This document shows, piece after piece, positions 43,796 to 59,569 of a stretch of 64,000 nucleotides of DNA. Source of the stretch: a virus. The notes below the pieces were generated by a model. It did no database searches and was not told the origin of the DNA. It saw nothing but the letters and a program-made list of their open reading frames with translations. The position numbers and the translations under genes are program-made. The stretch lies in IMG/VR virus record IMGVR_UViG_3300041964_000083, positions 1-64,000 of that record. One strand, given 5' to 3'. The stretch's first letter is position 1, and each line of letters opens with the position of its first letter.

Positions 43796-44224
43796 ATGCC
43801 CAAAACTCTATCTGAGCATTATAAAAGTTACGATCACGCAACATCCCAAAAAATGACTGAACACAACAAGTCTGGTGGAGATGTTCGCAAGCCCGTGCGG
43901 AAGGTCGGCAACGCATCAACGCAAGGTAAATATGATCGCGCAAAATTTAATCATCGCAAAGCTATGCAAATTCTCAAGCGTGGCGACCCGTTAACTGATA
44001 AAGATGGGATGCCAACTCCTGCGGCTATGCAATTTAAGCGATGGGCAGAGAAGGTTCCGAAAACAATGGAAGACGTAAAGGGAATACGCGATCGCGCCGA
44101 GAAACAAAAAGCCTCCTACAGTAAAAAACTAGGTAAGGGTGATTGTGGCGGAACGTGTGCTTGCAATAGCTGCTCTGGGCGTAGTGACGCTTATTTAGCT
44201 GGATTTTGGAGCGTGTCTCGATGA
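43796..44224 (+). CDS. Basic protein ending in Cys cluster and RSDAYLAGF
   Basis: CGGTCACNSCSGRSDAYLAGF. Confidence 0.6.
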   Translation: MPKTLSEHYKSYDHATSQKMTEHNKSGGDVRKPVRKVGNASTQGKYDRAKFNHRKAMQILKRGDPLTDKDGMPTPAAMQFKRWAEKVPKTMEDVKGIRDRAEKQKASYSKKLGKGDCGGTCACNSCSGRSDAYLAGFWSVSR

Positions 44225-45399
44225 TTAATCGTTGGTTTCAAGAACAAATACTTGCGTACCTCGACCCAGATAATGCCAAGGCACTGGCACGATTAGATAG
44301 CAAAAGCCTTGAAGAGGAGTTTCAAACGGTTGTTCAACTCCTTGTTGATGCTCCTGATGACATCCGAATAGATGATGGGGTTGAGCCAACTGAAACATTG
44401 GTTGAGCAGATAAGCGATCGCGTAACATCCACGGTTATTAATCTGTTTGCGCCAGTTCTCGCCAAAATTGAATCCAAGTTATCTAGATCTGACAACGAAA
44501 CGTTGTCAACTGAAGAACTATTACCTGCAATTACCCGATCAGATGCTAACGTTCCTATTAAACGTGTAGTCAAACATCAAGGATTTGAGATTGGCATTAC
44601 GCACGAGAAGGATGCCATACGTTTCCCTTACTCGTTACCCCTATCGGCTGGGTATGGGCATATTCGACGCTCATACGGCGCAGCCGAGGACAAGAAGGCT
44701 ATCGATGTGTACTGGGGTGGGGATGAATCGGCTACAGATGTATATAGAGTGCGCCAACTCAACCCTGATACAGGGTTTGTAGCAGAACACGACTACTTCA
44801 TGGGGTTTGGTGGAGAAGATGCTCCTAAAGCGATTAGGGAGCTATATCTTCGACATTTAGGACAAAAGCGGTTTGGTGGGTTAGAGAAAGTAGATTTATC
44901 TCAGATTACCCAATATCAAGATAAACCATCAGAAGTGATTCCAGAAGGACATCATTGGGTAAAAAACGATAACGTCGTGGGTGGTGGTTACATCCGACGA
45001 AATTGGCGAGAACAAAAAAAAACTGACAACGATGCGTTGTTAACCGATTGGGATAATCTTCGCTACGATTCTCCAAATCAAGATGATTGGGATGATTCAG
45101 ACTACATAATTGACCACACAATGCAGCAATCGGGCAAAGTGTTCAATCGTTGGCTATCTAAGATTCAAGACTGGGTGGGCGAACAAGGAAGTTTAGAGAA
45201 TGCACGCGATCGCATTCATGAACTTTACCAACACCTTGACGGAAAACAACTCGCCCAAGTTTTAGAGCAAGGAATGACATTAGCAGATTTGAGCGGACGT
45301 TTAGCTGTGGTAACCGAAAGTGCCGAAGACGAAGAAGAAGCCAACACTGGCGCAGAAGAAGAAAGTCAAGACCGTGATGCATCGATGGAAAGAGGGTAA
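44221..45399 (+). CDS. Head-associated protein with inorganic-pyrophosphatase-like (InPase) domain and Mu-portal-like C-terminal segment
   Basis: GYGHIRR..AAED..AIDVY...Q.NPDTG...EH..FMGF; LY..LD..LAQVLEQGM..ADL.GR; several RxD motifs. Confidence 0.6.
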   Translation: MINRWFQEQILAYLDPDNAKALARLDSKSLEEEFQTVVQLLVDAPDDIRIDDGVEPTETLVEQISDRVTSTVINLFAPVLAKIESKLSRSDNETLSTEELLPAITRSDANVPIKRVVKHQGFEIGITHEKDAIRFPYSLPLSAGYGHIRRSYGAAEDKKAIDVYWGGDESATDVYRVRQLNPDTGFVAEHDYFMGFGGEDAPKAIRELYLRHLGQKRFGGLEKVDLSQITQYQDKPSEVIPEGHHWVKNDNVVGGGYIRRNWREQKKTDNDALLTDWDNLRYDSPNQDDWDDSDYIIDHTMQQSGKVFNRWLSKIQDWVGEQGSLENARDRIHELYQHLDGKQLAQVLEQGMTLADLSGRLAVVTESAEDEEEANTGAEEESQDRDASMERG

Positions 45400-47062
45400 G
45401 CTTCATGTCGGCAAGTCTGACAAAATCGTGACTTCACAAAAACAGGCGGTCGTGATCGCGTTAAATCAATCGGGGTTATCCAATCGCAAAAAAAAGGCTC
45501 ATAGAAAAGATGCTGATAATGCTATTAATATCAGTCTTGCGCTCAAGCGAATTATTGGTTCGGTATATCGCGATGGTGTAGACGCAGTTCTTTCTTATGA
45601 TACGGATGCGACAGGTGGGATATCAGGGTTATTCCGTGATGGTCGTGAAGTATTTGATTACAGTATTGCCCCAACCGGACAAATCATGTATGTTGAAGTT
45701 GCTGATGCGAGACGGGATGCTTACCTAGAAGGGTTTTATCTGGCAGGGCGAGTACCTGATTGCAGCATTAGTAATACGTATACAAAATCAGTTTTAGAGA
45801 CAGAGCTAACACGAATAGATACTAAAAAATCACGCAAATGTAGTAGTGGTAAGTCTTGTGGCGGTAGTTGTATCGCTAAAGGTTTTAGGTGTGTTCAACA
45901 ACTTGGTCAAGGCGAACAACTTGCAGTTAAACGAATATCTCAAACTATAAAAGCCCAAAAAAGCAAAAAACAATCTCCGTTAGATACATTGAAACGTCAT
46001 GCACCAATTCTTGCTGGGATTGCAGGCGCAGGGTTGTTAGGTGCTGCGGCAGTAGGAGTCGCAATGGCAAACCAAGGCAAGCCATCTCCTACAACTACGC
46101 CTGTTAAACCTAAAGAGTATTCACCTACAACTCCTGCACAAAATCCGACATCACAACCCAAGCCACAAGCACCAGCAACAAAAAAACAATCCGGTGTAGC
46201 TGACCCGTGGGATGGACCAGAACCCGATCCTTGGGAAGGGCAAGTCACGCCAAGACCAGATACACCTCAACCTAAAACAACTCCCAAAATTACACCAGGC
46301 GCTACACCACAATTAGTACCATCACCACAACCAAAACCCCAAAACGAGGAATTTCTTCGGGAATCCACAGCTAGTGAGGCTGAAGCTGCTAAAAACACGT
46401 TACTTAATAAAAATACCGGATATAAACTTAATGAAGCTCTGGATATCCAAGGATTTGATAGCGATACAGCAAGCAAGCTAAACCATACTGTTAATCAAAT
46501 TCATAAAACAGTAAATATTCCTAATTTGTCCAAAATCCCTGTTCAGCCGTCTACGGATGGTAAAGACGACGGTAATTATTATTCTGCAACTTGTACTGAC
46601 GGTAAAACAGGTGCGTTTTTAGGACGAGTACCATTAAAGATTGAACTAGATCCAAACGGTAATCGCAAAGAATCAGCGCTTGTTCACGAAGTTGGACATT
46701 TTATTCACCATTCTGCAATTGGCGATCCTAAAGAAGGGTATAAGGGCAAAATAAAGCCTGAAATGCAAGAGTTATTTAATGCTGTAAACAAGACAAATGC
46801 TGTAAAAAAACTCGATAAGTTAGTACGTACTGCTCGAAACCAAGATATTCGTGAGCGGGCAAATTATCTCAACCAACCAGAAGAATTGTTTGCTCGTGCT
46901 TTTACTCAATACATTGCTAAAAAATCTGGTTCTAAGATATTACAAGTGCAAGTCAAGATGGGGCAAAAAGGCAAAGCCGTTGAATACTGGGATGATCGCG
47001 AATTTAGTCGTACTGTAGAACCTGCAATGGATAAATTTGCTAAAGATATGGGATGGAGATAA
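45320..47062 (+). CDS. Modular cargo-family protein: DUF6496-like + shared N domain + Cys4 + TM + Pro-rich + HExxH zincin (LPD1-like)
   Basis: KVKTVMH..K.GKLH.GKS..V.S.KQA..IAL; CSSGKSCGGSCIAKGFRC; HEVGHFIH...YL..PEELFARAFTQY. Confidence 0.7.
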   Translation: MPKTKKKPTLAQKKKVKTVMHRWKEGKLHVGKSDKIVTSQKQAVVIALNQSGLSNRKKKAHRKDADNAINISLALKRIIGSVYRDGVDAVLSYDTDATGGISGLFRDGREVFDYSIAPTGQIMYVEVADARRDAYLEGFYLAGRVPDCSISNTYTKSVLETELTRIDTKKSRKCSSGKSCGGSCIAKGFRCVQQLGQGEQLAVKRISQTIKAQKSKKQSPLDTLKRHAPILAGIAGAGLLGAAAVGVAMANQGKPSPTTTPVKPKEYSPTTPAQNPTSQPKPQAPATKKQSGVADPWDGPEPDPWEGQVTPRPDTPQPKTTPKITPGATPQLVPSPQPKPQNEEFLRESTASEAEAAKNTLLNKNTGYKLNEALDIQGFDSDTASKLNHTVNQIHKTVNIPNLSKIPVQPSTDGKDDGNYYSATCTDGKTGAFLGRVPLKIELDPNGNRKESALVHEVGHFIHHSAIGDPKEGYKGKIKPEMQELFNAVNKTNAVKKLDKLVRTARNQDIRERANYLNQPEELFARAFTQYIAKKSGSKILQVQVKMGQKGKAVEYWDDREFSRTVEPAMDKFAKDMGWR

Positions 47063-47307
47063 TGTTTAACTCTATAGAACAGATACAACAAGATTATAAA
47101 ATTGGTGTTGGAACCGCCAGTTTTCTTTATACGCTTGGGTACATACCAGCGCTTGAACGTTTTCCTAAATCAATCCCGATAGAAGATTTAGTAAGTATTT
47201 TTCAAAAAGAAGAGACATTAACTCCAGAAGAATCCCAGCTTATGGTGCGATGGAATAGAGGTGATATTCATCGCAGTCGTGCTGTCAATGTGCTTGTGGA
47301 GGTTTAG
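47053..47307 (+). CDS. Hypothetical protein
   Basis: Small ORF after the zincin gene. Confidence 0.5.
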
Positions 47308-47312
47308 ATATT

Positions 47313-48203
47313 ATGACAAGTTCAGCTTACTATCAGAGTTTTGTTGAAACAACTAATAGGGTGAGACGCGATCGCATTAAAGAACGTACTGGTCGTGTGC
47401 GTTTTACAAAAGCAAAGTGCAAAAAAGGTAAGCCTTGTGGCGATATCTGCATACCTCAAAAAGCTAAATGTAATGAAGGAAATGTTCGCCCACCTAAATC
47501 ACAAGCAAATAGCATAGCCGCAAATGCTATTAGGGGTGCGGTGGCGGTAGCTGGTTTGGCTTTAGGGGCTAAAATGATTCAAGATATACAAAAAGAAGGC
47601 GAAGAAATAAAACAAGCTAAAGAAAAAGTAGCTGCTGCTGGCAAGTACAACGAAAATTTAAATAATTGGAATAAAAAATATGCAGGTAAACAATATACCG
47701 AGTTCACAACAGAAGAATGGGAACAAGCCCGTGATGAGTTTCAAAAGAATCGAGAAGAATTTAAGCGCAAAGCTGGCTTTGACCCAGATCCAGGATTTGA
47801 TGACCGATGGAAACAATCTGTAGGTTCAGGAAAACACAAACCAGATCCCGTCAAAAACGAACAAGGTAAAGCTTATTATGACGTGTTAGGTGTGCCTAAA
47901 AATGCGTCACCTCAACAAATCAAAGCGGCTTACCGCAAGCTTGCAGCACAGCTTCATCCGGATAATCGTGAAACAGGCAACCCAGATAAGTTCAGAGAAG
48001 CGACTGAAGCTTATGAAAAAGCTCAAGCACACAAAGGTTCTGCAAGAGGCAAAGGTAATCGCAAGGATAGCGTTTGGGACGACATTGAATCTGCTTATAA
48101 TGAGGCAATAGCACAACATCCAGCAATGCCCAGTAGCTACTGGTACAACTTTTCAACATACGACCCATACAACGCTTGGCGTAAGCCACTTGATTTGCTA
48201 TGA
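47313..48203 (+). CDS. Modular cargo-family protein: Cys4 + TM + J-domain
   Basis: [18 protein letters not shown]; [12 protein letters not shown]; [22 protein letters not shown]. Confidence 0.8.
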
Positions 48204-48550
48204 ATAGTGCCGCTTATTACACCAGTTTTATTCAGACAACTGCTAGGGTAAGACGTGATCGTGCCTTACGTGCTAAACCCAAATGTAAACCCGGAAATAA
48301 ACCTTGTGGGCAACGCTGCATCCCACAAGAAGACATATGTCGTCAAAATAGCGCGGGTATGCGAGGAGCTATTCCTGCTGCACTAGCAGCTACGGCTGTC
48401 CTAGCAACAGCTGGAACTTTGTATGCTAAAAACAAGCAACGCCAAAAAAGTCAAACTGAAGATAAAGAACTTGACGAAGGATGGAACCGTCTAGGACATG
48501 AAAGTACTGAAATTTTGAGAAGAGTGCAAGGAAAAAAGAAAAGAAGCTAG
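48200..48550 (+). CDS. Minimal cargo-family protein: Cys4 + TM
   Basis: [22 protein letters not shown]; [19 protein letters not shown]. Confidence 0.7.
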
Positions 48551-48568
48551 TTTTGAGTTATCTTTACA

Positions 48569-49318
48569 GTGCCAAAGCGACCAGAATATTTAAACCAACC
48601 ATTTCAGGAAGCAATTGATTACTTTAAAGACAAAGTACCTTTTCCAACGCAACGTGGGCAGAAAGTGCCTGAAGGTTTCCACGACCACGCTTTCACTATC
48701 ACAGGACTTACCAAAGGCAGTTTACTAGAAGATGCCAAGTGGCTTATTGAACGGGCAATGGAAGACGGTACAGGACTAGACGACTTCACCCGTCAATTTA
48801 ATCGCTTAATTGGGCGCAAGGGATGGCAACCTGGTGATCGCCGCATTCAAACTATTTTTGACACTAATATTCGTCGCAGTTATAGTGCAGGACGGCGTGA
48901 GCAAATGCTTGACCCCGACATAGCTGATCGTCGTCCGGGTTGGATGTGGATTCATAGGACGCCAGGGAAAGAAGAAGGTGGAACACCCAGACTACACCAC
49001 CAAGCGTTGCATCGCAAAGTATTTAGGAATACTGAGACATTTTGGGATAAAGCCTTTGCTCCCTGCGGATTTGGCTGTCGCTGTACTGTTATGACGTTAA
49101 GCGAGAAACAAATGGAACGCATGGGTGTTACGTATGAAACTCCACCTAATCCTAATACCATTGCAGAACCTGGGTTTAGGAGTGCCGCAGGTTCATCGCC
49201 TAAAGAATCGCGACAACAAATCCTAAAAGACGGATTAACGGGTCTTTCTCCTAGCATTAGAGAAGTGGTGGAAAAAGACCTTAGCGCCAAAGGAGTTTTG
49301 GACGATGGTAACGATTAG
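48569..49318 (+). CDS. Phage Mu F-like minor head morphogenesis protein
   Basis: PFQEAIDYF..K, AFTITG, RIQTIFDTN, R..H..L, FW....PCGFGCRC. Confidence 0.88.
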   Translation: MPKRPEYLNQPFQEAIDYFKDKVPFPTQRGQKVPEGFHDHAFTITGLTKGSLLEDAKWLIERAMEDGTGLDDFTRQFNRLIGRKGWQPGDRRIQTIFDTNIRRSYSAGRREQMLDPDIADRRPGWMWIHRTPGKEEGGTPRLHHQALHRKVFRNTETFWDKAFAPCGFGCRCTVMTLSEKQMERMGVTYETPPNPNTIAEPGFRSAAGSSPKESRQQILKDGLTGLSPSIREVVEKDLSAKGVLDDGND

Positions 49319-49760
49319 TGCTGCAATAAGCGATCGCGAACTCAAAGATAAACTTACCCAACTTCAGCAGGTTACAGCCGATTTAGGTAAACTCAAGCTT
49401 GTTGTAGGAACTCCTATCAAATACATGAAACAGCATCAGTTAGGTACAAATGGAATGACAAAACGAGAGTTTTTGGGGATTAGTCGAACTGATCGCCAAG
49501 AAATAATTGAAATTTTTGATGATGCTATAGCCGAGCCTGTACCAAGAGGTGCTGAAATTGCTTTACGTGAATGCGGTGAAACGTTACTCCTAAGTATAGA
49601 TACCCGTTGGGATAGAGAAATTGCGCCAGATGGTACACCTTGGAAGAAAAACACACCTTACACAAGAAGGTTAAAAAAAGCCAAAGGACGAATACTAAAA
49701 ACATTGCAATCTACAGGTCTAGCACGCGCAAGCATTAACTACCAAATCATTCGTGAGTAA
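49305..49760 (+). CDS. Mu gpG-like virion morphogenesis protein, apparently permuted
   Basis: VGT..Y...HQLG..REFLGIS precedes PDGTPW...L..TG...SI. Confidence 0.7.
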   Translation: MVTISAAISDRELKDKLTQLQQVTADLGKLKLVVGTPIKYMKQHQLGTNGMTKREFLGISRTDRQEIIEIFDDAIAEPVPRGAEIALRECGETLLLSIDTRWDREIAPDGTPWKKNTPYTRRLKKAKGRILKTLQSTGLARASINYQIIRE

Positions 49761-50282
49761 GTCACAAAGAGCATCATCTAACTGCTTAAATTCCTCACAC
49801 TCTCGCAGTATTCGTGCGATCGCCCACACCTCAAGCAAATAAATTCGGACGAAGCCTGATTCAATTCGCCACAACAAAGCAGCGTCTATTCCTGTTCGTC
49901 TTGACAGTTCGTTTCTATTTATTCCAACGTTCAGTCTAGACTTGCAAATTAAAACACCTGTTTGTTTATGGATATCACGAGTTCCGTGATTTCCTTTGGG
50001 AAAATGTGTATCTAAAACTAATTTAAGCTGTGCAATTTCAGGTGAATACACACTAAACAGGCTAGCAATATCCTTGACTTCAAATAAATCTAATTTTCTG
50101 ATTCCATGTTCTATATATTCAACGCTAGTGCGATTTAGGTTAATTAATTCCCCTAGTTTTTCTTGCGTAATTATGTTTCGATGATTACGCCGACGCAGGT
50201 TATAGATAATTTTCCCCAATGCTTTATATGGGTTCACACCTAAATAGGATATATTTTTTTCTGAGATTTTACGCTGCATCAC
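49719..50282 (-). CDS. Tandem XRE HTH regulator
   Basis: ITQEKLGELINLNRTSVEYIEHG and INRNELSRRTGID...WRIESG. Confidence 0.75.
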   Translation of the reverse strand: MMQRKISEKNISYLGVNPYKALGKIIYNLRRRNHRNIITQEKLGELINLNRTSVEYIEHGIRKLDLFEVKDIASLFSVYSPEIAQLKLVLDTHFPKGNHGTRDIHKQTGVLICKSRLNVGINRNELSRRTGIDAALLWRIESGFVRIYLLEVWAIARILRECEEFKQLDDALCDLLTNDLVVNACAC

Positions 50283-50409
50283 AGTTCAACTACTAATACC
50301 CATCCTCACTTTAATTCGATAAAACCTGCTTAAGTGATGCAAAACTGAGTAGTTCCACCAATTTGCTTGTTGAAATCTTTAGTATTTAGCTAGCGATTTT
50401 ATAAGTATT

Positions 50410-51969
50410 TTGGTGGCTACACGCTACGACTCAGGCAAACTTCGTAAAGCTCATAAAACTGCCGAAGGCGCATTGTTTTCGGAAGCTATTTATGCGCGAG
50501 ATGGCGTTTTAGAGTATCGCCTTCCCAACGGTGGGACAAGGCGAGAACTTCGCTTACCAGAAACCAACTACGACGAGGAAACGCTGACTAGTTACGGCTC
50601 AAAACCTATAACGGTCGAGCATCCACCTGTTTTAGTGACAGCGGATAATGCAAAAACTTATCAAGTTGGAGCATCAGATGCTGAACCAATGTATGAACGT
50701 CGCTACGAAAAGGGTTTTGTTGGCGGCATTGTTCGTATTTGGCATAGCGATGGCGTGAATGCTGTTGAGTGCAATGGGAAGAAAGAAGTATCCATTGGTT
50801 ACACCTGTGACATTGAACCCGTTGGTGGCATCTACTACCCAAAAACAGGCACTTATGTTGTTACCGATGCTGCTCCAGATAAGGGTGGTGAACGATTTGA
50901 CGCCATTCAGCGCAACGTTCGCGTAAACCATATTGCACTTACTTCTAAAGGTCGTGCTGGTCCAGAAGTCTGCTTGCGAATTGATAGCGAAGACGATGAT
51001 GTTGCCATCCTTGCCAAACCGTTTGAATTTCGCAAAGACGAATATGTAATTCCTGATTCTCCTTTACCTACTACTAACTCACCCACAAAACGCATGGCTG
51101 TCATCCGTATCGACAACATGGATTTTTCTGATGTGCCGGAAACTGTTGCGGTACTGATGAACCAAAAACTCAACGCTCTTGTAGAGCTTCAATCTCGCAA
51201 AGACGCTTTAGAGATTCAATTTCAAGAGCGCGAAGAACAACTCGATGAATTGCGAGAACAAGTAGACGAAGTTGCCGACGAGCGCGATCGCGAACGTGGT
51301 AGGGCTGACGCTTTAGAAATTCAACTCGCTGAAGCTGAAAGTAGGCAAGATGCTGCGATGCCATACAAAGGCAAGAAAAAAGGCAAAGCTCCCATTGTTG
51401 AGGTTGACGAAGACGAAGATTTTGACCCAGATGATATCGACGAGCTGGGTGACGATGACGAAGCTGACGATGAGGACGATGACGAAGATATGGAACCTAC
51501 GCCAATACCAAAGAAAAAAGGGGGACGGAAGGATTCTGATTTTGTTGATGTTGACCCTCATCAGCTGTTTGTTGCTTACGTTGATGCCAACAAAATTGTC
51601 CCTGGTTTGATTTCTGAAGACAAACTTGATTCGTTTGCCACACCTACCGATGTTCGTCGGCTGGCTATAGAAACGCTTAATCCCGATATTGACTTAACAA
51701 ATCGGAGTGATGCCTATGTTGATGGGGTTTATGACTTTATCAAATCTCAAAAGCTTCAAACTACCGAACAGTACCCGGAGCAGCTAGAACGTAACGACAG
51801 TATTAACACTACTTCCTATATCGGTTCTCATACACCACCTAGCGAAATTCAAACTGCGATCGCGCAAGCTCGCTCAAATAGCACTCCTACTTCCCCGCTG
51901 CAAGGTGCAGCAGAAAAGCAACGCGACCTCTACATGAATTCTTGGAACAAACCCCTCGACTTGGTTTAA
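50410..51969 (+). CDS. DUF2213-type prohead protease / scaffold
   Basis: ARDGVLEY...ELR.PE...PITVEHP, EVSIGY, DAIQRNVRVNHIAL..KGRAG...RID; acidic coiled-coil scaffold tail with RSDAY. Confidence 0.85.
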   Translation: MVATRYDSGKLRKAHKTAEGALFSEAIYARDGVLEYRLPNGGTRRELRLPETNYDEETLTSYGSKPITVEHPPVLVTADNAKTYQVGASDAEPMYERRYEKGFVGGIVRIWHSDGVNAVECNGKKEVSIGYTCDIEPVGGIYYPKTGTYVVTDAAPDKGGERFDAIQRNVRVNHIALTSKGRAGPEVCLRIDSEDDDVAILAKPFEFRKDEYVIPDSPLPTTNSPTKRMAVIRIDNMDFSDVPETVAVLMNQKLNALVELQSRKDALEIQFQEREEQLDELREQVDEVADERDRERGRADALEIQLAEAESRQDAAMPYKGKKKGKAPIVEVDEDEDFDPDDIDELGDDDEADDEDDDEDMEPTPIPKKKGGRKDSDFVDVDPHQLFVAYVDANKIVPGLISEDKLDSFATPTDVRRLAIETLNPDIDLTNRSDAYVDGVYDFIKSQKLQTTEQYPEQLERNDSINTTSYIGSHTPPSEIQTAIAQARSNSTPTSPLQGAAEKQRDLYMNSWNKPLDLV

Positions 51970-51972
51970 ATT

Positions 51973-52848
51973 ATGGCTGAATTCTTTCCCACACATAACC
52001 CAGTCGGAGGGCAAACCGACTATCGCACTGATATGTTTGTTGCCTTACCCGGAATGCTTTCCGGTATGGGTAGCTCACGTATTCTCCCTCACGTTAATGA
52101 CGTTGGTGCTGTTGACACGTACACAATAACCACTGGCGCAGTTACAGCAAACACCGAATACAGCGCAATGATTCAAGGGCAACGCATCAGTTATATGTCA
52201 GATGCTGATCCGACTATTGCTGAAGTCATTACTGGAATCTACAACGAGATTAGGTTAAAACCTACGGTGTATCGTCTTGCCGACTTGACTAAAAACGATA
52301 CAACCAACACGCTTACACTAACTGGACGCATTCAAGGCGTACCGTTAAGCATTACGGGGCAAGGACTAACCGTTACCAAAGTGGTAACGGGTTCTAACCT
52401 ATGTGACGCATCTAATCTTGTCATTCCCTTCGGTCGTTTTGTTGGTCGAAAAACCGATTACAAACTCGACCCGCGTGAAGGTGTGAGTTCAGCAACATTG
52501 ATTGACTCGCTCACTGACGAAATCTTGGGCATCACCAAACGTACTCATCACACCGAACAAGTTGGGTATTTCCACTGCGCTCAAAGTGGATATATGTTCG
52601 GGGACACCATGAACGTCATGGAAGACACCGGAACGATTAAGGGTATCTGGACAGAGTGTGTTGAAGCTGATTTAAAGATTGGCGAGAAAGCCTATTGCGC
52701 GATCGCACCCGGTTTAAAAGGCAAGCTCACTCGCGACACTACGGGCAAAGACATTTCTGCAATGTGCCGAATTGTGGGAGCAACCGAACCTACGGTTGGC
52801 GGACTTTTCATGGCGTTATGCCAGTTCAACCGCTACGGAACTTGGTAG
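51973..52848 (+). CDS. Head decoration / cement-like structural protein
   Basis: Between scaffold and capsid; ALPGM..., IPFGRFV, GIW. Confidence 0.6.
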   Translation: MAEFFPTHNPVGGQTDYRTDMFVALPGMLSGMGSSRILPHVNDVGAVDTYTITTGAVTANTEYSAMIQGQRISYMSDADPTIAEVITGIYNEIRLKPTVYRLADLTKNDTTNTLTLTGRIQGVPLSITGQGLTVTKVVTGSNLCDASNLVIPFGRFVGRKTDYKLDPREGVSSATLIDSLTDEILGITKRTHHTEQVGYFHCAQSGYMFGDTMNVMEDTGTIKGIWTECVEADLKIGEKAYCAIAPGLKGKLTRDTTGKDISAMCRIVGATEPTVGGLFMALCQFNRYGTW

Positions 52849-52889
52849 GCAAAACAGCTAATAACGAACGACTAACAACCAATAATTAA

Positions 52890-53825
52890 ATGGCAATCAA
52901 ATCCTATCAAGCTGAACTTAGAACCGACTCTCCAGGCGTCATGGCATTTGCTCGTGACCTTGAGTACAAAGAAGCTAGGGTAATCGAGCAAGTTTATCCG
53001 GAGAAAAAAGCCGCCAACGGCTTGATGATTCAAATTGAAGAGGTCGAGATGCCGTGGGCGCTCTCCACCAGCTTCCGCATGACAGATGGAGTTGGTAGCT
53101 TCGAGCTAGCCGACGACTTCACCACCAACCTCCCATTCGTGGATATGGTGGCTACCGAATTCAAGAACGATGTTAAATCTTATCGTTCTGGCTACTACTA
53201 CTCCGAAAAAGAAGTAGCAGCTTTTAATCACTTAGGCTTACCTATTGATGAACAAAAGATTGCGCTAGTTCGTAAGGCTTATGTTCAAACACTCAATAGG
53301 CTAATACTGTTTGGCGATCGCAAGACGGGAATGCCGGGATTTGTTAACCATCCTGCGTTCTTGCGTTCAATCTCTCCCTATAAACTCGACGGTTCTGTAG
53401 GAAATGCCAACCAGCTTATCTCCGCACTTACATTTGGGATGAGTGCTGTATCTGACTCTACAATCGACGCGCTCGAATGTGACACCATCTGGCTTCCACG
53501 TAAACAGTTTACGTTTATGAACTCCCAAGCCCGGATGGATGGTGCTCTGGAAAAAACTGTACTCAAGTTCTTTAAGGAGAACAACACTAACCCAAACGTT
53601 CAGATCGGCTGGATGCGGGAATTAGAAGGTTGTGGACCTAACGGGGAAGACGTAGCACTCTTCTACTCTAGAAACCCCATGTATGTAAAGGCGCGTATTA
53701 CTGACCCCTTCCGCTTCCGTCAGCTGATGGTCTACCCGTTCATGCTGTATCGCCCTGTGGCGTTTGATTGGAACGGCATCCAAGTTTACAACCCCTACTC
53801 CGTTCATGTCATGATCGGAGTTTAA
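52890..53825 (+). CDS. Major capsid protein (DUF2184 / HK97-fold type)
   Basis: FARDLEY...YP, Y.YS..E, LFGD..TGM.GFVNHP, G..VY.P; position after decoration gene. Confidence 0.85.
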   Translation: MAIKSYQAELRTDSPGVMAFARDLEYKEARVIEQVYPEKKAANGLMIQIEEVEMPWALSTSFRMTDGVGSFELADDFTTNLPFVDMVATEFKNDVKSYRSGYYYSEKEVAAFNHLGLPIDEQKIALVRKAYVQTLNRLILFGDRKTGMPGFVNHPAFLRSISPYKLDGSVGNANQLISALTFGMSAVSDSTIDALECDTIWLPRKQFTFMNSQARMDGALEKTVLKFFKENNTNPNVQIGWMRELEGCGPNGEDVALFYSRNPMYVKARITDPFRFRQLMVYPFMLYRPVAFDWNGIQVYNPYSVHVMIGV

Positions 53826-53832
53826 TCCTATA

Positions 53833-53856
53833 GTACTCACTACTCACTACTCAGCA
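53833..53856. repeat. STRR-like heptamer repeat TACTCAC x3
   Basis: tactcac tactcac tactcag after the capsid stop. Confidence 0.5.
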
Positions 53857-53870
53857 CCAACGACTAAACA

Positions 53871-54398
53871 ATGCCTGAAACAGAATCTAAAGTACAAGTT
53901 AAAGTTGTCGAAAAACGACTACCCGAATATTACGCAGTGGCACATCGTCCTAAACTCGATCAACCTCAGCGTATGGGACATCTCATTTTTGCTTACCCAA
54001 AAGAAAATGAGTTTGAGTTTAACAAAAATGTCCAAACCCAAGTCTTGATGGGTGTTTTAACCTTAAAAGAGGGATGTACGTTTGTTGACTACGCAATTTG
54101 GCAAGCTGCCATGTCCTTTCCACAGAATCAGAAAGAAGTGGAACGAATGCAGGGTGTAGGTGCGATCGCAATCTTCATACCTAACGCAGAAACTACATCA
54201 CGCGACAGCACCGATTTTACGACTATTGGTGCTGCGGTATCCGTGATTGGCTTCTGTAATGATTTGAGTTGGCTAGAGAAGTCTAGGAATCGGGACAAGC
54301 GCTTAGAAATTGATAAAGCGATCGCAGCGCGGCTAGAACAAGTTGCAGAAAAGACCAAGAACCCACAACAATCGTTTCCAGTAGGTTCATTTATCTAG
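53871..54398 (+). CDS. Hypothetical head-region protein
   Basis: After capsid; ends DKR..I.KAI..RL. Confidence 0.6.
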   Translation: MPETESKVQVKVVEKRLPEYYAVAHRPKLDQPQRMGHLIFAYPKENEFEFNKNVQTQVLMGVLTLKEGCTFVDYAIWQAAMSFPQNQKEVERMQGVGAIAIFIPNAETTSRDSTDFTTIGAAVSVIGFCNDLSWLEKSRNRDKRLEIDKAIAARLEQVAEKTKNPQQSFPVGSFI

Positions 54399-54406
54399 GT
54401 TAAATC

Positions 54407-54607
54407 ATGGTACTTAACATCAAATCTAAGGAATTACCTTTTGATCTCGTTGGCGATCAGGTTCGTTATCCTAACGGGCAGTTAGAGCCTGTTAATGGTA
54501 CACATTTGGCATTGGTTCAAATATTTCTACTCAAAGAAATACTAGCTGAACAAAAAAAGTCAAATGAAACACCTGAGCCGTCTCCACCAGCAACCAAAAC
54601 AAAATAG
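54407..54607 (+). CDS. Hypothetical protein
   Basis: 66-aa ORF. Confidence 0.5.
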   Translation: MVLNIKSKELPFDLVGDQVRYPNGQLEPVNGTHLALVQIFLLKEILAEQKKSNETPEPSPPATKTK

Positions 54608-54646
54608 TATAAATTAACGTAATTTTGACAACGCATCGTTGTCAGT

Positions 54647-54832
54647 TTGATTTTTATGACTACTCAACAAGACAGAGAACACGCACAGAAGTTACTCGAT
54701 ATTCGTAATGCCGGACGCCCCAAGCGCACTATTGTCGGCAATACATTGGTAATTACCAACGGTTCAGATACGATCAATTTATCCATGTTTACCAGCAACG
54801 TTCAGTCAGAACGAACGGCAATATTCCGATGA
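54647..54832 (+). CDS. Hypothetical protein
   Basis: Short ORF with ATGA overlap; preceded by palindrome copy 54626-54644. Confidence 0.45.
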   Translation: MIFMTTQQDREHAQKLLDIRNAGRPKRTIVGNTLVITNGSDTINLSMFTSNVQSERTAIFR

Positions 54833-55248
54833 CTCGTGAAGAATTTCTACTCAGCTATCCTGAGTTTGCTCGTCTGAGAGCTTCTATAATTACAAGCACT
54901 ATAACGCTTGCTGAAATAAGCTGCCCTGTTGCCAAATGGGGGACAATGCAGCCGATCGCGGTTGGGTTATTTACAGCGCACACGCTATCAGCACGCTACA
55001 ACCAACTATCAGTCACTGCTTCAACAGCCGGTGCGATCGCGGCAGGCAATCAGGTGAGTTTTCCATCTGTTCCGACTAGTGGTGGTAGTGGTGCTGAGGA
55101 TGATGCGTTCTTGGGGATGACAACTTATGGTGTTCGGCTCAAACAGTACAAAGATCAGCTTGGAGAATTAGCAAAGCTAGGTATGTTAGGCGATGAAGCC
55201 AAGGGTTATCAAGAATCTGTATCGGCTAATACAGGATTTGCTTTCTGA
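54829..55248 (+). CDS. DUF4054-like head-tail adaptor
   Basis: F...YPEF...L.TAH.L...TTYG. Confidence 0.75.
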   Translation: MTREEFLLSYPEFARLRASIITSTITLAEISCPVAKWGTMQPIAVGLFTAHTLSARYNQLSVTASTAGAIAAGNQVSFPSVPTSGGSGAEDDAFLGMTTYGVRLKQYKDQLGELAKLGMLGDEAKGYQESVSANTGFAF

Positions 55249-55667
55249 TGTGGGGAGAACATCTCAGTGACATGATTGGGTTAAGAGATGAGCTAGCAGC
55301 TGAAGCTGAAGGACTCGACACAATTCGATCGCTTATCATCCGTCGTCGTAATCGAGACGATGAAACATTCCTGGAAATAACACCTAAGCCCCACATTACC
55401 TACACATCGCCACAAGAGAAGGGGTTAGAAGGCGCTACTCAAATTCAAGCCGCTAACCAGCAATTTCAGGTAAAGGGTATTAGTAAACGGTATTTGTACG
55501 GGGATTTAGTTGGGCAGCGACTTGACTATTGGATAGATGGCGTTGTTGTAGACGAACAGCTTACCGAAGGTATTCAGTGTAGCTTTGTCTCGATTGAGGA
55601 GAAGAGTACTACGTGGGATATGGTGTTAGAGAGCAAAATAGGAGAGCAGCAAGTCTATGTTTATTGA
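55248..55667 (+). CDS. Putative head-closure protein
   Basis: Position after adaptor; TGATG coupling. Confidence 0.5.
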
Positions 55668-55872
55668 CGACTCACACCTTAAGAAATCGCTATTTAGTGA
55701 CATCTGCACCAAATGCAAGCACTTAGACTTAGAATCTGCCAAAACAGATAAGAAAATCTGTACAGCATTCCCCGATGGTATCCCATTTGAAATATGGTCG
55801 GGTAAGAATGACCACAAGAAACCCTATCCAGGTGATCGCGGTATTCAATTTAAGCTCAAAACCATTAAATGA
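55657..55872 (+). CDS. Small Cys/His-rich phage protein
   Basis: CTKCKH...[25 protein letters not shown]. Confidence 0.65.
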
Positions 55873-57311
55873 ACGCAGCAACTCTCCCTAAACTTAGCCC
55901 TCAGCAACGCATTCGATTAATGCTCAAGCGTGTTATCGAGAGCGGATTTACGTCAGGGATTAATGGGGTGTTGAGTTTTGATTTGGAAGAAGATGGAAAG
56001 ATAACGGGAAAGTTTTTAGAGAATCGTCAGGTTTATGACTTCGCGATTACACCTAACAATATTTTGAGTTATGTAGAATCAAAAGTTAGGAGTGATGCTT
56101 ACCTTATTGGCTACTACGGAGATAGCGGTTTATTAAAATATGGAGCAAGACTAGACACAAGTAGTAGCAAGCGTCGTTGTGTAGCAGGTAAGCCATGCGG
56201 AAAGACTTGTATTACCAAAGGCAAGAAGTGTTCGATTAAGCTTGGCAATGTCGCAGCTAAAACAATGGGTGCAATTCGCACTCAATTAAAATCTGCACCG
56301 CCTGACACAAATAAGCAAGATGTTGCCAAAAAATATAATGTAACTCCATTAATAGCAGCCGGTGCTATAGCAGGTGCTGCTGTAATTGGGATGTCCGCAG
56401 CTAGCTATATGGCATTTCGTTCTGAATATCGAGAAGGATTTAAGGAGTCTGCCGAAAAGGTAAAAACAGCTGTTAAAGAGAAGCTTGACAAGGATTCTGA
56501 TACTACACCGCTTAAGACAGGCTTGAATGGTGACAAAGACATTGATGCTGATGAAATAACACTTGTTGTTGGTGGTTTTGCTGGACAAGATGGAAAAAAT
56601 TCTGAAAAATGGGCAAAACAATTACTAGGTAATGATGGATTATTTGATAATCATTATGTAGAGCCTATTGAAAATAAAGAATTTGATGTAGATTTTCAAG
56701 AACATATTGAAAACACTAAAAAAGGTCAGTTTAGTCCTGGAACAATTACAGGAAATAATAAAATTTTAGCAATGGAAATGTCTTGGGCAAAGATGCTCAA
56801 TACAGCTATTGGTAAAAAACATAACCCTGTTTCAGTGAACCTTGCAACCCAAGCTTATTATTATCACCAAAAATATCCAGATAAACCTATTAACTTGATG
56901 GGTTATTCGGCGGGTGGGATGGTTACACACGAAGCTGCGGAGATATTAAAAGAGTTGGGTGTTACTAAAAATGTAAAAACCGCTAATTTTGGTAGCCCTT
57001 ATTGGGGGTTGACAGAAAAAGTTGGAGATTCAATTACATTTGCATCTGATAACGATCAGAATATGACAGGAATGCCCATTCGCGATCGCGTAGAAGTAAG
57101 TTCAGTACATAATCATTTTGATTATTTAAAAAACCCTACGGTTAGAAAACAACTCAAAGGATTCTTGGGTGGTAAAGCCGTATCTGGTGAAAAAATTAGC
57201 AAAGAGCAAGAAGAGCGCATTAAAAAAGCTCAGTCACGACGGGAAAAACGTAATCCTGAAGAATTGAAGCGAAAATTAGAAGAGCGCAATAGACGGAGAA
57301 AACAAAACTAA
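55869..57311 (+). CDS. Modular cargo-family protein: N domain + Cys4 + TM + alpha/beta hydrolase
   Basis: RSDAYLIGY; [21 protein letters not shown]; VGGF; GYSAGG; FGSP; D...H. Confidence 0.8.
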
Positions 57312-59569
57312 TGGTTGCAACTTCAGTTTCTACACCGTCTAGACAACAGACCGCATTAGCTTTAAAAAAGATTATTGAGTCTTCATTTACTAGCGGTATA
57401 GATGCTGTACTTAGTTTTGCGTTGGATGAAGACAATACGATTACAGGTAAATTTTTAGAAAATCGTCAAGTTTATACTTTTGAGATATCTCCAAAAAACA
57501 GAATTCGGTATGTTGAAGCACAAGCAAAAAGCGATGCATATCTAGCGGGTTTTGTTGAAGTTATGCCTATCCGCTTAGACAAAATGAACGGAGGTAAGAA
57601 GAAGCGCTGTATTGTTGGTAAAGCGTGTGGTGGTACTTGTATAGCAAAAGGAAAGGTGTGCGATCGCGAACTATCACCTAAAGCTGCCCAATTAAGTAAC
57701 GCAGTGCGAAAGGTGTTAGGTGGCAGCACAACTAAACCACCCGAACAGAAATTTCCAAAGATTAATCCAGGTCTTGTCGGTGCAGCTGTATTTGCAGCTG
57801 GGGTATTAGGTGTGCCTGTTGCTGGATATTTAGCAACAAGAGCAACATACCGCGCAGGCTTTAGTGAATCTGCGGAGATTGCTAAAAAAGAAGCTGAAAA
57901 ATTAGCAACTCAAAATTATAAATGGACTAAACGAGACAAAAAGCTTATTGCAGCTTCAAAGTTTAAAGGCGAAGGTGTTCCTGAACCTAAAAGTGAAGGA
58001 GAGCCAGCAATTCCAGATGTACTCTACGGTGGAACTCCTAATGAACGGTATTTTTTAGGGGAAGTCGGAAAACGCTACGGCAAAGAACCAAGCGAAATGT
58101 ACAAAAAAGCTAAGCAAATTACGTTAGTTGCTAATGGGTTTGCCGGAGAAGACAACACGGACTCAGGCGTCAGTGTTTCAGGCGATTTGATGGGTAACGA
58201 TGGTCTATTTGACGATCACCACGTTGTTCCTATTGATGCGTCTGGTTTTTCCCCTAATTTCATGAAAGGTGAAGAAATTGCCAAAAACGTTTTAGAAAAA
58301 GTATTTAAAGAAGGTCGTAACCCCGTAGCCGTCAGAATGGCGTCACACGCCTACGCATTTAGTAAAAAACATCCAGATGTACCTATTAACCTAATTGGTT
58401 ATTCTGGTGCTGGAATGGCAACCCATGAGGCACAGGAAATATTAAAACAAATGGGTGTTAAGGTACGTGTTGCTAACTTTGGCTCACCTTACGGGGGGTT
58501 AACTGAAAAAGTAGGTGACTCGGTAACATTTAACAGCCCATCAGATTTTGTTACTCGTCATACACCTGTTCGAGACGAAATTAATGTTCCTCATGTAGAT
58601 GGACATTTTAAATATTTATTAGATAGCAAAGTCAGAGGAAAACTTCGGGATTACTTTGACGGCAAGAAAATTAAAGGTGAGCCAACATCTCTTGAGCAAG
58701 AAAGACACGCTCAAAATGTACTGAAAAAAGAGACATCGGCGTTTGCTGAAAAACAAGCTCGGTTAAGAGAAATTGACCGTAAGCGGAAAGAGCGTGGAGC
58801 AAAACGTAGTAAAAAAAAACTAGATAGCATCAAACCAAATTGTTCACCTAAAAGTAAATTGTGTGGCACTCGCTGTGTTCCTAAAGAATACAATTGCAAA
58901 CAAACTAAACAAAAACCATTCAATGCAACAAATGCTGTTTCTATAGGTGTTGGAATAGCTGCTACTGTGGGACTTGGGGCAGCTATAGCCATTCCGGCAT
59001 CGATGGCTCTACATACAGAAATTGCAAAAAATCGTGCTGAAACTGTAAAACGCAACGTTGAAAAAGAAGAAGATGCAATTAAAGACTCACCTGTTGAGCA
59101 TTTTGTAATTATTAATCCCAAAACAGGAAAGACAATAGCAAAAGGTTCTAGCAACGAAGCAACAAGAGTGGATATTCCTACTGAAGCTATGGGTAAAATG
59201 AAGGGCGCTATTTTTACCCATAATCATCCCAAAGCTCTTAATTTTCCAGAATCTCATCCTCAAGGTAAAGGTACTAGTTTTTCTGAAGCTGATATTCGTA
59301 TTTCTTGTCAAATGAATGTTAAAGAGATGCGTGCTGTGAGCCGAAAATATCGTCATAGCTTAAGCGTAGGTGCTAAGGGTTGGGGGGATTGGGATAATCA
59401 AGTAAAACCTATATACGACAAACACGACGAACAACTTCTAAAGGAATGTCAAGATCATATACTTTCTCGCAAATACAAAGCCGCAGAGCTAAACGCAATT
59501 TATCACCACGAACTCAATAAGCGTGTAGCTAAAGATATGGGATGGACTTACATACGAACACCTATTTAA
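57311..59569 (+). CDS. Modular cargo polyprotein: N domain + Cys4 + TM + hydrolase // Cys4 + TM + JAB/MPN-like
   Basis: KSDAYLAGF; two Cys4 modules; GYSGAG; EH...THNHP...SFSEADI. Confidence 0.8.
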   Translation: MVATSVSTPSRQQTALALKKIIESSFTSGIDAVLSFALDEDNTITGKFLENRQVYTFEISPKNRIRYVEAQAKSDAYLAGFVEVMPIRLDKMNGGKKKRCIVGKACGGTCIAKGKVCDRELSPKAAQLSNAVRKVLGGSTTKPPEQKFPKINPGLVGAAVFAAGVLGVPVAGYLATRATYRAGFSESAEIAKKEAEKLATQNYKWTKRDKKLIAASKFKGEGVPEPKSEGEPAIPDVLYGGTPNERYFLGEVGKRYGKEPSEMYKKAKQITLVANGFAGEDNTDSGVSVSGDLMGNDGLFDDHHVVPIDASGFSPNFMKGEEIAKNVLEKVFKEGRNPVAVRMASHAYAFSKKHPDVPINLIGYSGAGMATHEAQEILKQMGVKVRVANFGSPYGGLTEKVGDSVTFNSPSDFVTRHTPVRDEINVPHVDGHFKYLLDSKVRGKLRDYFDGKKIKGEPTSLEQERHAQNVLKKETSAFAEKQARLREIDRKRKERGAKRSKKKLDSIKPNCSPKSKLCGTRCVPKEYNCKQTKQKPFNATNAVSIGVGIAATVGLGAAIAIPASMALHTEIAKNRAETVKRNVEKEEDAIKDSPVEHFVIINPKTGKTIAKGSSNEATRVDIPTEAMGKMKGAIFTHNHPKALNFPESHPQGKGTSFSEADIRISCQMNVKEMRAVSRKYRHSLSVGAKGWGDWDNQVKPIYDKHDEQLLKECQDHILSRKYKAAELNAIYHHELNKRVAKDMGWTYIRTPI

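Follow-up and report, generated by a model that had tools for sequence, protein, structure and literature searches.

A putative protease-site/helix junction shared by the DUF2213 scaffold tail and the effector leaders of a cyanophage

We found that the tail of a DUF2213 protease-scaffold protein and the putatively removable leaders of a family of Cys4 effector proteins in cyanophages share one short element, a likely protease site that leads straight into the first residues of a helix, and that the scaffold copy is kept family-wide in DUF2213 tails. The stretch of DNA analysed (the window) covers positions 1 to 64,000 of a 153,952-bp cyanophage genome whose closest named relative is Aphanizomenon phage CL131. 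With moderate confidence we propose that the motif is a protease site plus a helix start and that the cargo proteins are pro-proteins clipped at [RK]xD in the procapsid. The first three motif residues, [RK]-x-D, would be the kind of site cut by the DUF2213 head-maturation protease, and the residues that follow (A/S, Tyr, hydrophobic, x, Gly, hydrophobic/aromatic) would begin a short amphipathic helix. This junction would end an N-terminal pro-region in the cargo proteins. The pro-region would be a ~70-residue alpha/beta domain or, as in two small proteins, just ~20 leader residues; after it would come a flexible linker carrying another [RK]xD, then the Cys4 knot, a membrane-like helix rich in Gly and Ala, and the effector (hydrolase, metallopeptidase, DnaJ or others). 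In the scaffold the junction would be one of ten sites, and a near-invariant RxD[SA] would follow in a disordered linker. Cargo made as pro-proteins would share the procapsid with the protease-scaffold; clipping at [RK]xD would free the Cys4-TM-effector part and discard the pro-region, and the scaffold would likewise be cut up.

The motif was searched in the six-frame translation as the strict pattern [RK][RS]DAY[LVI]xG[FYV]. All copies quoted in an earlier note on this DNA are present, and the five strict matches in the window all lie on the + strand and within open reading frames (Table 1); the 153,952-bp genome holds no additional strict match. Besides six looser variants in the window, three more were found in the 343-aa protein, in the 62075 gene past the window end, and at genome position 82415, the last upstream of a Cys4 unit. 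The recurrence is significant: of all scaffold 9-mers the motif recurs in the largest number of other proteins, namely six (197-ORF proteome, BLOSUM62 score of at least 27), a number reached by none of 150 scaffold shuffles against the same proteome with paralogs kept in, and the pattern [RK]xD[ASD]xxxGx[FYW] was observed 5 times vs 0.33 expected (0/500 shuffles). Genes 45320, 55869, 57311 and module 3 of the 62075 gene share a homologous domain, which leaves ~3 independent motif contexts: the scaffold, the C-terminal end of the 43736 gene product, and the module family taken together. This common domain of ~70 residues, which ends in the motif, contradicts the earlier description of the carriers as unrelated. 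For the Cys4 proteins the note had also placed the motif upstream of the RxD-Cys4 unit, to be removed on maturation. That placement holds: the motif precedes a conserved [RK]xD in a predicted disordered linker and would therefore be removed if the site is cut. In the 43736 gene the motif comes after a Cys-rich stretch at the extreme C-terminus and not upstream of a Cys4 unit; the stop codon of this gene overlaps the ATG of the following gene, which encodes the InPase protein.

Table 1. Positions in the window of the motif copies, [RK]xD sites and Cys4 units, with the genes that carry them.
Feature	Position	Strand	Basis or remark
Small basic protein, motif at C-terminus	gene 43736/43796-44224; motif 44177..44206 (strict match 44180-44206)	+	
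DUF6496/LPD1 metallopeptidase-like protein, motif closing N-domain	gene 45320-47062; motif 45710..45736	+	
Same protein, RID site and Cys4	RID 45809-45820; Cys4 45839-45892	+	
Cys4-DnaJ protein, minimal N-terminal leader (loose motif + RRD)	47319..47375; loose motif 47319-47342; Cys4 47418-47471	+	
DnaJ protein, C-terminal tail, copy of scaffold C-terminus	48171..48200	+	BLASTP 7/10 identical, E=3e-4
116-aa Cys4 protein, minimal leader (loose motif + RRD)	48206..48262; loose motif 48206-48229; Cys4 48284-48340	+	
DUF2213 protease-scaffold fusion protein, 519 aa	50410..51969	+	Pfam PF09979, E=3.2e-24, 86 bits vs cut-off 22
Scaffold-tail motif copy: RSD site + start of 19-residue helix	51700..51738 (strict match 51703-51729)	+	
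Near-invariant RxD[SA] of scaffold tails (RNDS here), disordered linker	51790..51801	+	tail alignment + AF2; one of the 10 [RK]xD[ASTG] sites of the protein
Conserved extreme C-terminal scaffold tail	51937..51966	+	W/Y-x-x-P-L ends nearly all homologs
Major capsid protein RTDS, probable maturation site near N-terminus	52920..52931; gene 52890-53825	+	
Hydrolase protein 1, complete module	55869..56231; gene 55869-57311	+	AF2 mean pLDDT 84
Hydrolase protein 1, parts	motif 56085-56114 (strict match 56088-56114); RLD 56148-56159; Cys4 56178-56231	+	
Hydrolase protein 2, complete module	57311..57661; gene 57311-59569	+	
Hydrolase protein 2, parts	motif 57524-57553 (strict match 57527-57553); RLD 57572-57583; Cys4 57608-57661	+	
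254-aa protein, two loose helix motifs, RID, Cys4	59660..59848; loose motifs 59660-59686, 59738-59764	+	
200-aa protein module, loose motif, RVD immediately after, Cys4	60416..60781; loose motif 60680-60700	+	
343-aa protein, paralogous module, loose motif, then RVD, Cys4	61044..61409; loose motif 61308-61328	+	
1549-aa polyvalent protein, start	62075..64000	+	Cys4 units at 62111, 63080, 63920
Same protein, third module	loose motif 63845-63871; RSD 63890-63904	+	

The cargo module runs from an N-terminal domain through the helix, [RK]xD, Cys4 and a TM-like helix to the effector, the N-terminal domain being a conserved stretch of ~70 residues with the motif at its end. This genome has ~14 copies, and 99 representative proteins were collected elsewhere; the module was matched by no Pfam family, and its carriers form a large, so far undescribed group of virion effectors from cyanophages. 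The effectors are diverse (hydrolase, peptidase, DnaJ and others without assigned type) and the leader is common to them. A regular-expression search of the genome found 13 Cys4 units; each is preceded by [RK]xD at a distance of 5-20 residues, and the helix motif accompanies 10 of them. An alignment of the 99 proteins, with 168 module copies, showed conservation of the motif (R 80/122, D 96/120, S/A 94/120, Y 59/118, L 69/115, G 67/101) and of the second site (R 65/125, D 70/126). The helix form is present in 50/98 family proteins, in 41/97 N-terminal modules vs 13/71 internal ones, and short module copies drop the helix and retain RxD. The AF2 model of hydrolase protein 1 consists of an N-domain of one helix and four strands, the motif as helix 75-86 (pLDDT ~65-78), the RLD linker (53) and the Cys4 unit (>84). 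The leader of the Cys4-DnaJ protein is identical in a 92% ortholog, P0223, which also retains the scaffold-like tail; a C-terminus of this kind is found only in the scaffold and the DnaJ protein among the 197 ORFs. The module of the 200-aa protein is homologous to that of CL131 gp045. Among the Cys4 units of the 62075 protein inside the window, only the third has an N-domain, loose motif and RSD, and a fourth motif-bearing module lies past the window end.

The N-terminal domain of the scaffold protein matches the PF09979 profile and has 259 homologs. The protein is homologous to Pa193 gp24, a 'scaffolding protein' (PDB 9B40_G, profile E=5.9e-13), shares 30% identity with gp33, the capsid maturation protease of the T1-like phage TLS, and has the coiled-coil/acidic part and conserved tail of the DUF2213 family. 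DUF2213 is annotated as a protease, an activity for which we found no published assay in the literature, and the invariant H71, S128 and H174 of alignment A3 are candidate catalytic residues only. In an alignment of 41 homologous tails, the order of helix, linker, RxD[SA] and C-terminal tail is kept as far as the enterobacterial T1-like phages. The helix itself is kept in scaffold homologs, T1-like ones included; TLS gp33 aligns with the window scaffold at this helix, and many scaffolds have R-[LI]-D-S immediately before it. The AF2 tail model gave the motif as helix H55-73 (pLDDT 82-87), followed by the RxD[SA] linker at residues 75-97 (pLDDT <50).

The N-terminus of the mature TLS capsid protein was determined by Edman sequencing (PMC11447400), and comparison of these published data with the gene sequence places it, at this one site, directly after K-N-D of the gene product. 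TLS gp33 (DUF2213, PF09979) and the TLS capsid protein (PF09950) belong to the same families as those of the window, and by analogy [RK]xD is likely the site of the DUF2213 protease and would be cut in the window's phage as well. TLS has one [RK]xD-type site in its capsid protein, exactly at the mature N-terminus, and 12 in its protease-scaffold. The window scaffold has 10 [RK]xD[ASTG] sites vs 1.8 expected, the densest of 197 ORFs (0/500 shuffles); the excess in the cargo set is modest (24 [RK]xD-type sites vs 15.5 expected, reached by 6/500 shuffles). RxD was found at residues 6-13 in 14/14 distinct capsid proteins from lineages with this scaffold type, and also at scaffold N-termini. Downstream of the helix, AF2 put RxD in a low-confidence linker in both scaffold and cargo, and these predicted [RK]xD|[AS] substrates are thus conserved sites in accessible linkers. 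The first [RK]xD, at the helix start, lies at a structured junction (pLDDT ~78) and is less accessible than the second. The C-terminal RKDS of the DnaJ protein has R replaced by H in the 92% ortholog. A PSSM of the capsid N-terminal sites did not rank the motif copies highly, which speaks against a recognition motif that reaches past [RK]xD[AS]. In "RSD|AY" a cleavage site and a helix start are probably fused, at the edge of a removable pro-region.

Cargo and scaffold are coupled in the genomes. Modules were present in 10/14 long loci with this scaffold type vs 0/8 with distant DUF2213 proteins, and in the cargo-seeded loci L049 and L051 the gene of a module protein lies immediately upstream of the scaffold, cement and capsid genes. 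Four Cys4-bearing proteins of CL131 (ORF044, 045, 047 and 048) were identified in virions by LC-MS/MS (PMC6293099 Table S5), and gp045 is abundant in this whole-virion proteome of head and tail together (PMC6293099). In PHROGs, two proteins of the window had matches annotated 'minor head protein and DNA pilot'. The cargo would be expected in the capsid rather than the tail; several Cys4 genes are flanked by the head-tail connector genes on one side and by the presumed tape measure gene on the other, and some products could therefore be tail-associated.

The earlier note read the helix as a capsid-targeting or scaffold-docking signal, by which cargo copies the scaffold helix, enters the procapsid and loses the helix on maturation. 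That interpretation is partly supported: a scaffold-tail element is indeed common to the cargo pro-regions, with the same eight-position pattern in both families (D, small, Tyr, hydrophobic, x, Gly, hydrophobic, aromatic), and the DnaJ protein also copies the C-terminal tail of the scaffold, a further element, in the lineage-specific variant that this phage's own scaffold has. Comparing the profiles of scaffold tail and cargo module gave the motif as best local match. Its small-xxx-Gly spacing suggests tight helix-helix packing, N-terminal modules are enriched in the helix form, and two small proteins have a leader of ~20 residues alone (loose motif + RxD), resembling T4 capsid-targeting sequences. 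Mimicry in the proper sense is weakened by the lack of co-variation between scaffold and cargo helices in 8 lineages, which have just the hydrophobic-x-G-hydrophobic core in common; the L003 scaffold has Thr vs the Tyr kept in its cargo, the L049 scaffold lacks the first half, and PaV-LD-type cargo has a different helix. The hhalign match covers 10 columns (P=0.032, homology probability 1.6%), a PSSM built from independent scaffolds gave no cargo match above the 95% shuffled null, only about half of the family proteins have the helix form, and the capsid-bound scaffold fragment of Pa193 is the central coiled coil/helix-turn-helix, not the tail helix. The protease site also accounts for part of the identity (RSD): motif residues 1-3 are [RK]xD, which is cut in the TLS capsid protein, and much of the 'mimicry' can thus be shared substrate status. 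The motif is a possible capsid address tag, and we consider targeting by helix mimicry doubtful. Equally conjectural is a wider version in which a pro-region with a Gly-centred helix is a portable loading tag that packs on the scaffold-tail helix until two cuts free the effectors. Either pro-region or helix could have such a docking role; the helices would form a bundle in the procapsid core, like a spacer peptide between two protease sites, and cuts at both [RK]xD sites would dissolve it, freeing many different Cys4-anchored effectors. If true, this would be a natural modular cargo loading for HK97-fold capsids, common among cyanophages and unlike both the T4 CTS and encapsulin loading peptides.

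The helix could instead be an exosite that presents the adjacent [RK]xD to the protease, acting in recognition and not in encapsidation. RxD sites flank it in scaffold and cargo alike, and both are presumed substrates of one enzyme, but helix and second site are separated by anything from 0 to ~40 residues, RxD occurs without the helix at internal Cys4 units and capsid-protein sites, and the capsid-site PSSM did not find the motif. To our knowledge prohead proteases are not known to require exosites, and we judge this reading improbable. We give similarly little credence to coincidence between two ordinary helix starts after Arg, with no common partner and no cut here. The match is short, a Ser/Thr-Asp cap with an aromatic and hydrophobic face is a common helix start, the helix is part of a folded unit in both AF2 models, and some shared 5-mer between 519 residues and ~8000 neighbouring residues is, by estimate, expected a few times. 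Chance accords poorly with the position-specific conservation of R and D across 168 modules, with the rank of the motif as top-recurring scaffold 9-mer, and with the same order, helix then RxD in a disordered linker, in both families. That the Cys4 proteins are not capsid contents but ejection proteins of the tail channel or associated with the tape measure, with a motif unrelated to procapsid entry, seems very improbable. Their genes do lie, in the window and in CL131, between connector and giant presumed tape measure genes, they bear membrane-like helices, and the CL131 proteome pools head and tail; yet the genes of other family members separate the portal/MuF genes from the scaffold gene, the PHROG matches are to minor head and DNA pilot proteins, and the conserved head-protease-type sites imply exposure to the procapsid interior.

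Among known systems, TLS has the same PF09979 protease and PF09950 capsid protein, and its mature N-terminus after K-N-D conforms to [RK]xD|A; it differs in that it has no Cys4 cargo family, its scaffold helix starts K-A-D, and no other TLS protein copies the helix. Pa193 gp24 (PDB 9B40), homologous to the window scaffold, is found in virions, part of it remaining bound to the capsid interior (PMC11456595). For no other family member has a scaffold fragment been solved in its capsid-bound state. The visible piece, residues 286-326, aligns with the central coiled coil, and an unassigned density of ~16 residues lies under the hexons. In the herpesvirus assemblin-scaffold with its M-site, lambda C/Nu3, P2 gpO and the HK97 gp4 tail, protease and scaffold have a common capsid-binding C-terminus; the window protein resembles them as a fused protease-scaffold with a predicted cleavage site ~55 residues from a conserved C-terminal tail. 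SaPI1 CpmB mimics the 80alpha scaffold C-terminus, and the DnaJ protein, a non-scaffold, similarly ends in a scaffold-tail copy, capsid binding by the tail being assumed; the SDAY element differs from the CpmB case as a copy of an internal helix, not of a C-terminal tail. Polyvalent proteins are multi-effector, head-packaged and encoded beside MuF (Iyer et al., 2017, PMC5512222). Window proteins carry domains of that study (InPase, E=5.7e-16; LPD1 and DUF6496, near cut-offs; HEF_HK, weak) in the same late/head gene context as a MuF gene (48569-49318). The effectors here are mostly split among many genes with one module each, and a text search of PMC5512222 gave no mention of cysteine/zinc-ribbon motifs or the [RK]xD leader. 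In T4, the injected effectors IPI-III and Alt, otherwise diverse, have only a short conserved N-terminal leader (CTS) in common, which directs them into the scaffolding core, is followed by a prohead-protease site and is removed by the gp21 prohead protease (PMC3012670). The two minimal leaders in the window have this layout, and throughout the family a conserved leader on diverse cargo proteins precedes a head-protease-type site. The differences are that leader sequences are unrelated, the protease is DUF2213 here and gp21 in T4, the T4 site is L/I-x-E vs [RK]xD, and the leader here is mostly a folded 70-residue domain plus helix, with modules also internal in polyproteins and targeting putative. 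Neither leader nor protease gave a T4 family match in Pfam or PHROGs, and the cargo leader is at most an analogue of the T4 CTS, not a member of its family.

The window covers 64 kb at the start of a single 153,952-bp contig with phage genes all along it; the closest named phages are Aphanizomenon phage CL131 (50% identity in the capsid protein) and Planktothrix phage PaV-LD. A head-morphogenesis block occupies 43.7-64 kb on the + strand and contains the DUF2213 protease-scaffold fusion (hereafter the scaffold) and the cargo, a set of Cys4-module effector proteins named here by gene start. The motif under study is of the SDAY type, an [RK]xD running into a helix start. A small basic protein ends in the motif, and its stop codon shares the sequence ATGA with the start codon of the InPase gene, which suggests translational coupling and not a frameshift fusion. 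A contig from a Leptolyngbya genome (L049) encodes a 1906-residue protein that joins a Phage_portal_3 domain to an InPase polyvalent domain; MuF, a 1530-residue module protein and the scaffold lie downstream of it.

Features of the head block and other positions discussed in the text
Feature	Position	Strand	Basis
InPase polyvalent-type protein	head block	+	Pfam
DUF6496/LPD1 metallopeptidase-like protein	head block	+	Pfam
Cys4-DnaJ protein	head block	+	Pfam
MuF	head block	+	Pfam
Virion-morphogenesis protein	head block	+	Pfam
DUF2213 protease-scaffold fusion	50410-51969	+	Pfam
Cement protein	head block	+	Pfam
PF09950 major capsid protein	52890-53825	+	Pfam
DUF4054 connector protein	head block	+	Pfam
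Run of large proteins, cutinase-like hydrolase signatures	head block	+	Pfam
Stop/ATG overlap at InPase gene	44206-44224		
End of DnaJ protein	48171-48200		
Extreme C-terminus of scaffold	51937-51966		
N-terminal region of window capsid protein	52890-52960		
139-aa protein	55248-55667		
1549-residue protein (gene 62075)	genome 62075-66724		
Lone Cys4-like string	genome 127866-127928		
Portal-InPase protein	L049 1-2337		
TLS capsid protein	L052 15087-16061		

The strict form of the motif, [RK][RS]DAY[LVI]xG[FYV], has five matches where the earlier note had placed them, all on the + strand and inside ORFs, and no other anywhere in the genome; the looser variants were also found at their reported positions. 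Its recurrence proved non-random in a motif-blind test, in which each scaffold 9-mer was scored against the entire 197-ORF proteome. The motif 9-mer matched more other proteins (six) than any other scaffold 9-mer, a result reached by none of 150 shuffled scaffolds; second came the 9-mer at the extreme C-terminus, a match to the end of the DnaJ protein. Among the six matches is a 139-aa protein whose gene adjoins that of the DUF4054 connector and which carries R-L-D and then Y-W-I-D-G-V-V, resembling the scaffold motif.

The carriers had been taken to be unrelated, yet genes 45320, 55869 and 57311 and the third module of 62075 have in common a domain of ~70 residues that ends in the motif. Of the 13 Cys4 units that a regular expression detected in the whole genome, 12 fall between 45.8 and 64 kb. 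The order of elements proposed for them was borne out: [RK]xD lies 5-20 residues ahead of the first Cys in all 13, with a Tyr-x-x-(Gly/Ser/Ala)-hydrophobic motif further upstream in 10. A 14th unit, in gene 62075 beyond the window, has Lys where the residue after the second Cys is usually Gly; the fourth module of this 1549-residue protein has the motif and that unit, and a DnaJ domain stands at the end of the protein. One Cys4-like string stands alone at 127.9 kb, away from the head block. In the 45.8-64 kb stretch, a Gly/Ala-rich hydrophobic membrane-like helix follows every Cys4 unit within ~20-50 residues and precedes the effector, which would put a basic stretch, a Cys4 knot and a membrane-like anchor at the front of the mature effectors.

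The first 125 residues of gene 55869, used as query in an exhaustive search, yielded a family of 99 representative proteins, many of 1000-3600 residues, with up to seven module copies each; all those whose names were looked up were 'hypothetical'. Counted over 168 module copies, the motif positions were occupied by R (80/122), D (96/120), S or A (94/120), Y (59/118), L (69/115) and G (67/101), followed by Y/F. A second R-x-D lies ~20 residues after the motif. Cys 2 and 4 of the Cys4 unit are invariant, and Cys 1 and 3 are present in ~85% of copies; short copies retain the first R-x-D and proceed at once to Cys4, without the helix. AlphaFold2, run on an alignment of 71 copies, gave a confident helix-plus-four-strand domain, the motif as helix 75-86 with moderate confidence, a poorly ordered linker (pLDDT 53) holding the second site, and a confident Cys4 hairpin knot. 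No Pfam family matched any of the 71 copies, and fold searches of the model against the PDB and the ESM Atlas, together with an Atlas feature search, returned no similar fold and nothing usable. The module family appears to be undescribed.

A scan of viral contigs with the single scaffold sequence found no relative, whereas the scaffold alignment succeeded as a seed. Across the C-terminal 125 residues of 41 homologs the plan of the tail is constant: a small helical region closing with the motif helix, a linker that is usually acidic, a near-invariant R-x-D-(S/A), a helix, and the C-terminal tail W/Y-x-x-P-L-(S/T). This plan reaches enterobacterial T1-like phages, and in many scaffolds R-(L/I)-D-S stands immediately ahead of the helix. 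The AlphaFold2 model of the window scaffold has the motif opening a 19-residue helix (pLDDT 82-87), followed by 23 disordered residues that contain RNDS. The alignments and models of both families thus indicate that scaffold and cargo have a part order in common, a helix and then [RK]xD in a flexible linker, beyond a mere string. H71, S128 and H174 are invariant among 20 diverse scaffold-protease sequences; these candidate catalytic residues may correspond, in order and spacing, to the His-Ser-His triad found in assemblin-type capsid proteases.

In lineages with this scaffold type, all 14 distinct capsid proteins have R-x-D within residues 6-13; the scaffolds have it at residues 4-6. The T1-like phage TLS (L052) has a PF09950 capsid protein and a DUF2213 protein, gp33, with 30% identity to the window scaffold, and the Edman N-terminus of its mature capsid protein is published (PMC11447400). 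Residue 28 of the gene product, straight after K-N-D, is the first of the Edman heptapeptide, so ~27 residues are removed and not 45, as the text of that paper surmised. [RK]xD[ASG] occurs exactly once in the TLS capsid protein, at the Edman position, and 12 times in its protease-scaffold. The window scaffold has 10 such sites against 1.8 expected (0/500 shuffles), the top density of the 197 ORFs; the cargo set has 24 against 15.5 expected. Given the Edman position, the shared protein families, the conservation of R-x-D near the capsid N-terminus and the site density, [RK]xD before [AS] is probably the DUF2213 protease site, shown once, in the relative TLS, and inferred in this phage. Judged by sequence, the first three residues of the motif form a putative [RK]xD site of this kind.

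In 12 of 14 related capsid proteins (from loci L001-L051) and in TLS, the N-terminal RxD has Gly at +5 and Phe/Trp at +7, a spacing that the motif has too; the window's own capsid protein departs from the pattern. The motif was also considered as an extended protease recognition site common to these N-termini and was rejected, as the motif copies do not rank highly with a PSSM built from the capsid sites.

The module family goes together with this scaffold type: among long loci, 10 of the 14 that were seeded on the scaffold contain modules, against 0 of the 8 that have distant DUF2213 proteins. In two cargo-seeded loci a giant module protein lies directly upstream of the scaffold, cement and capsid genes, and two window proteins match PHROGs of minor head/DNA pilot proteins. 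Cys4 units are present in CL131 ORF044, 045, 047 and 048, all detected in purified virions by LC-MS/MS (PMC6293099 Table S5). The module proteins may reside in the head rather than the tail.

On the preferred reading, the motif joins a probable protease site to a helix start at the edge of a removable pro-region, which would explain why scaffold and cargo have it in common. The earlier note had proposed instead that the helix is a capsid-targeting signal by which cargo imitates the scaffold. Its eight-position pattern is indeed identical in the two families, and a profile-profile comparison of scaffold tails with cargo modules placed the best local match exactly at the motif, but this match spans ten columns (P=0.032). 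A PSSM and a short HMM were built from the scaffold helices of other phages, and with both, cargo copies were in the top ten but none exceeded the shuffled null; with the PSSM, 5 of the 10 best non-self matches were cargo and the null was the shuffled 95% level. The family-level resemblance is therefore weak. Co-variation was looked for in helices paired from 8 lineages and none was seen: cargo retains R-S-D-(A/S)-(Y/F)-L-x-G while in scaffolds Thr comes in or the first half is gone, leaving only a hydrophobic-x-Gly-hydrophobic core in common, and in PaV-LD-type cargo the two sites flank another kind of helix. N-terminal modules have the helix form more often (41/97) than internal ones (13/71); half of the family's proteins do without it.

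Two small proteins have a leader of only 20 residues, with a loose motif and RRD, which recalls T4 capsid-targeting sequences. A second scaffold element, the C-terminal tail, is copied by the DnaJ protein in the unusual form that it has in the scaffold of this very phage: 7 of 10 residues are identical, both copies end at the stop codon, and no other of the 197 ORFs ends in this way. RKDS lies ~47 residues upstream of the DnaJ tail, its scaffold counterpart being RNDS. A search for orthologs, made to test co-variation with scaffold tails, returned only one (92%), in which the tail is retained and HKDS replaces RKDS. A plain sequence search of the PDB with the scaffold gave coiled-coil noise only; a profile search led to its homolog Pa193 gp24, whose fragment seen inside the capsid is a helix-turn-helix from the centre of the protein and not the helix in question. 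The Pa193 map also has a ~16-residue density under the hexons without assignment (PMC11456595). Of the proposed mimicry, the common motif thus stands, while 8-lineage co-variation and PSSM support do not, and we regard this specific mechanism as rather unlikely. The helix or the pro-domain may also dock cargo in the procapsid, which is an attractive hypothesis.

For the loading of effectors into the heads of tailed phages other than T4, these results offer a concrete leader amenable to mutation. DUF2213 head proteases, which have been little studied and are found too in T1-like and PB1-like therapeutic phages, gain a probable cleavage motif, and phages of bloom-forming cyanobacteria a large unannotated family of virion effectors with predicted processing. 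Should the leader suffice for packaging, it would be a tool for putting proteins into capsids; even if it does not, mature virion proteins of these phages could be predicted by means of [RK]xD. The concept, a leader with a protease site and copying of the scaffold tail, is known from T4 and from herpesvirus, lambda, HK97 and SaPI1 systems, but sequence family, protease family and site differ here.
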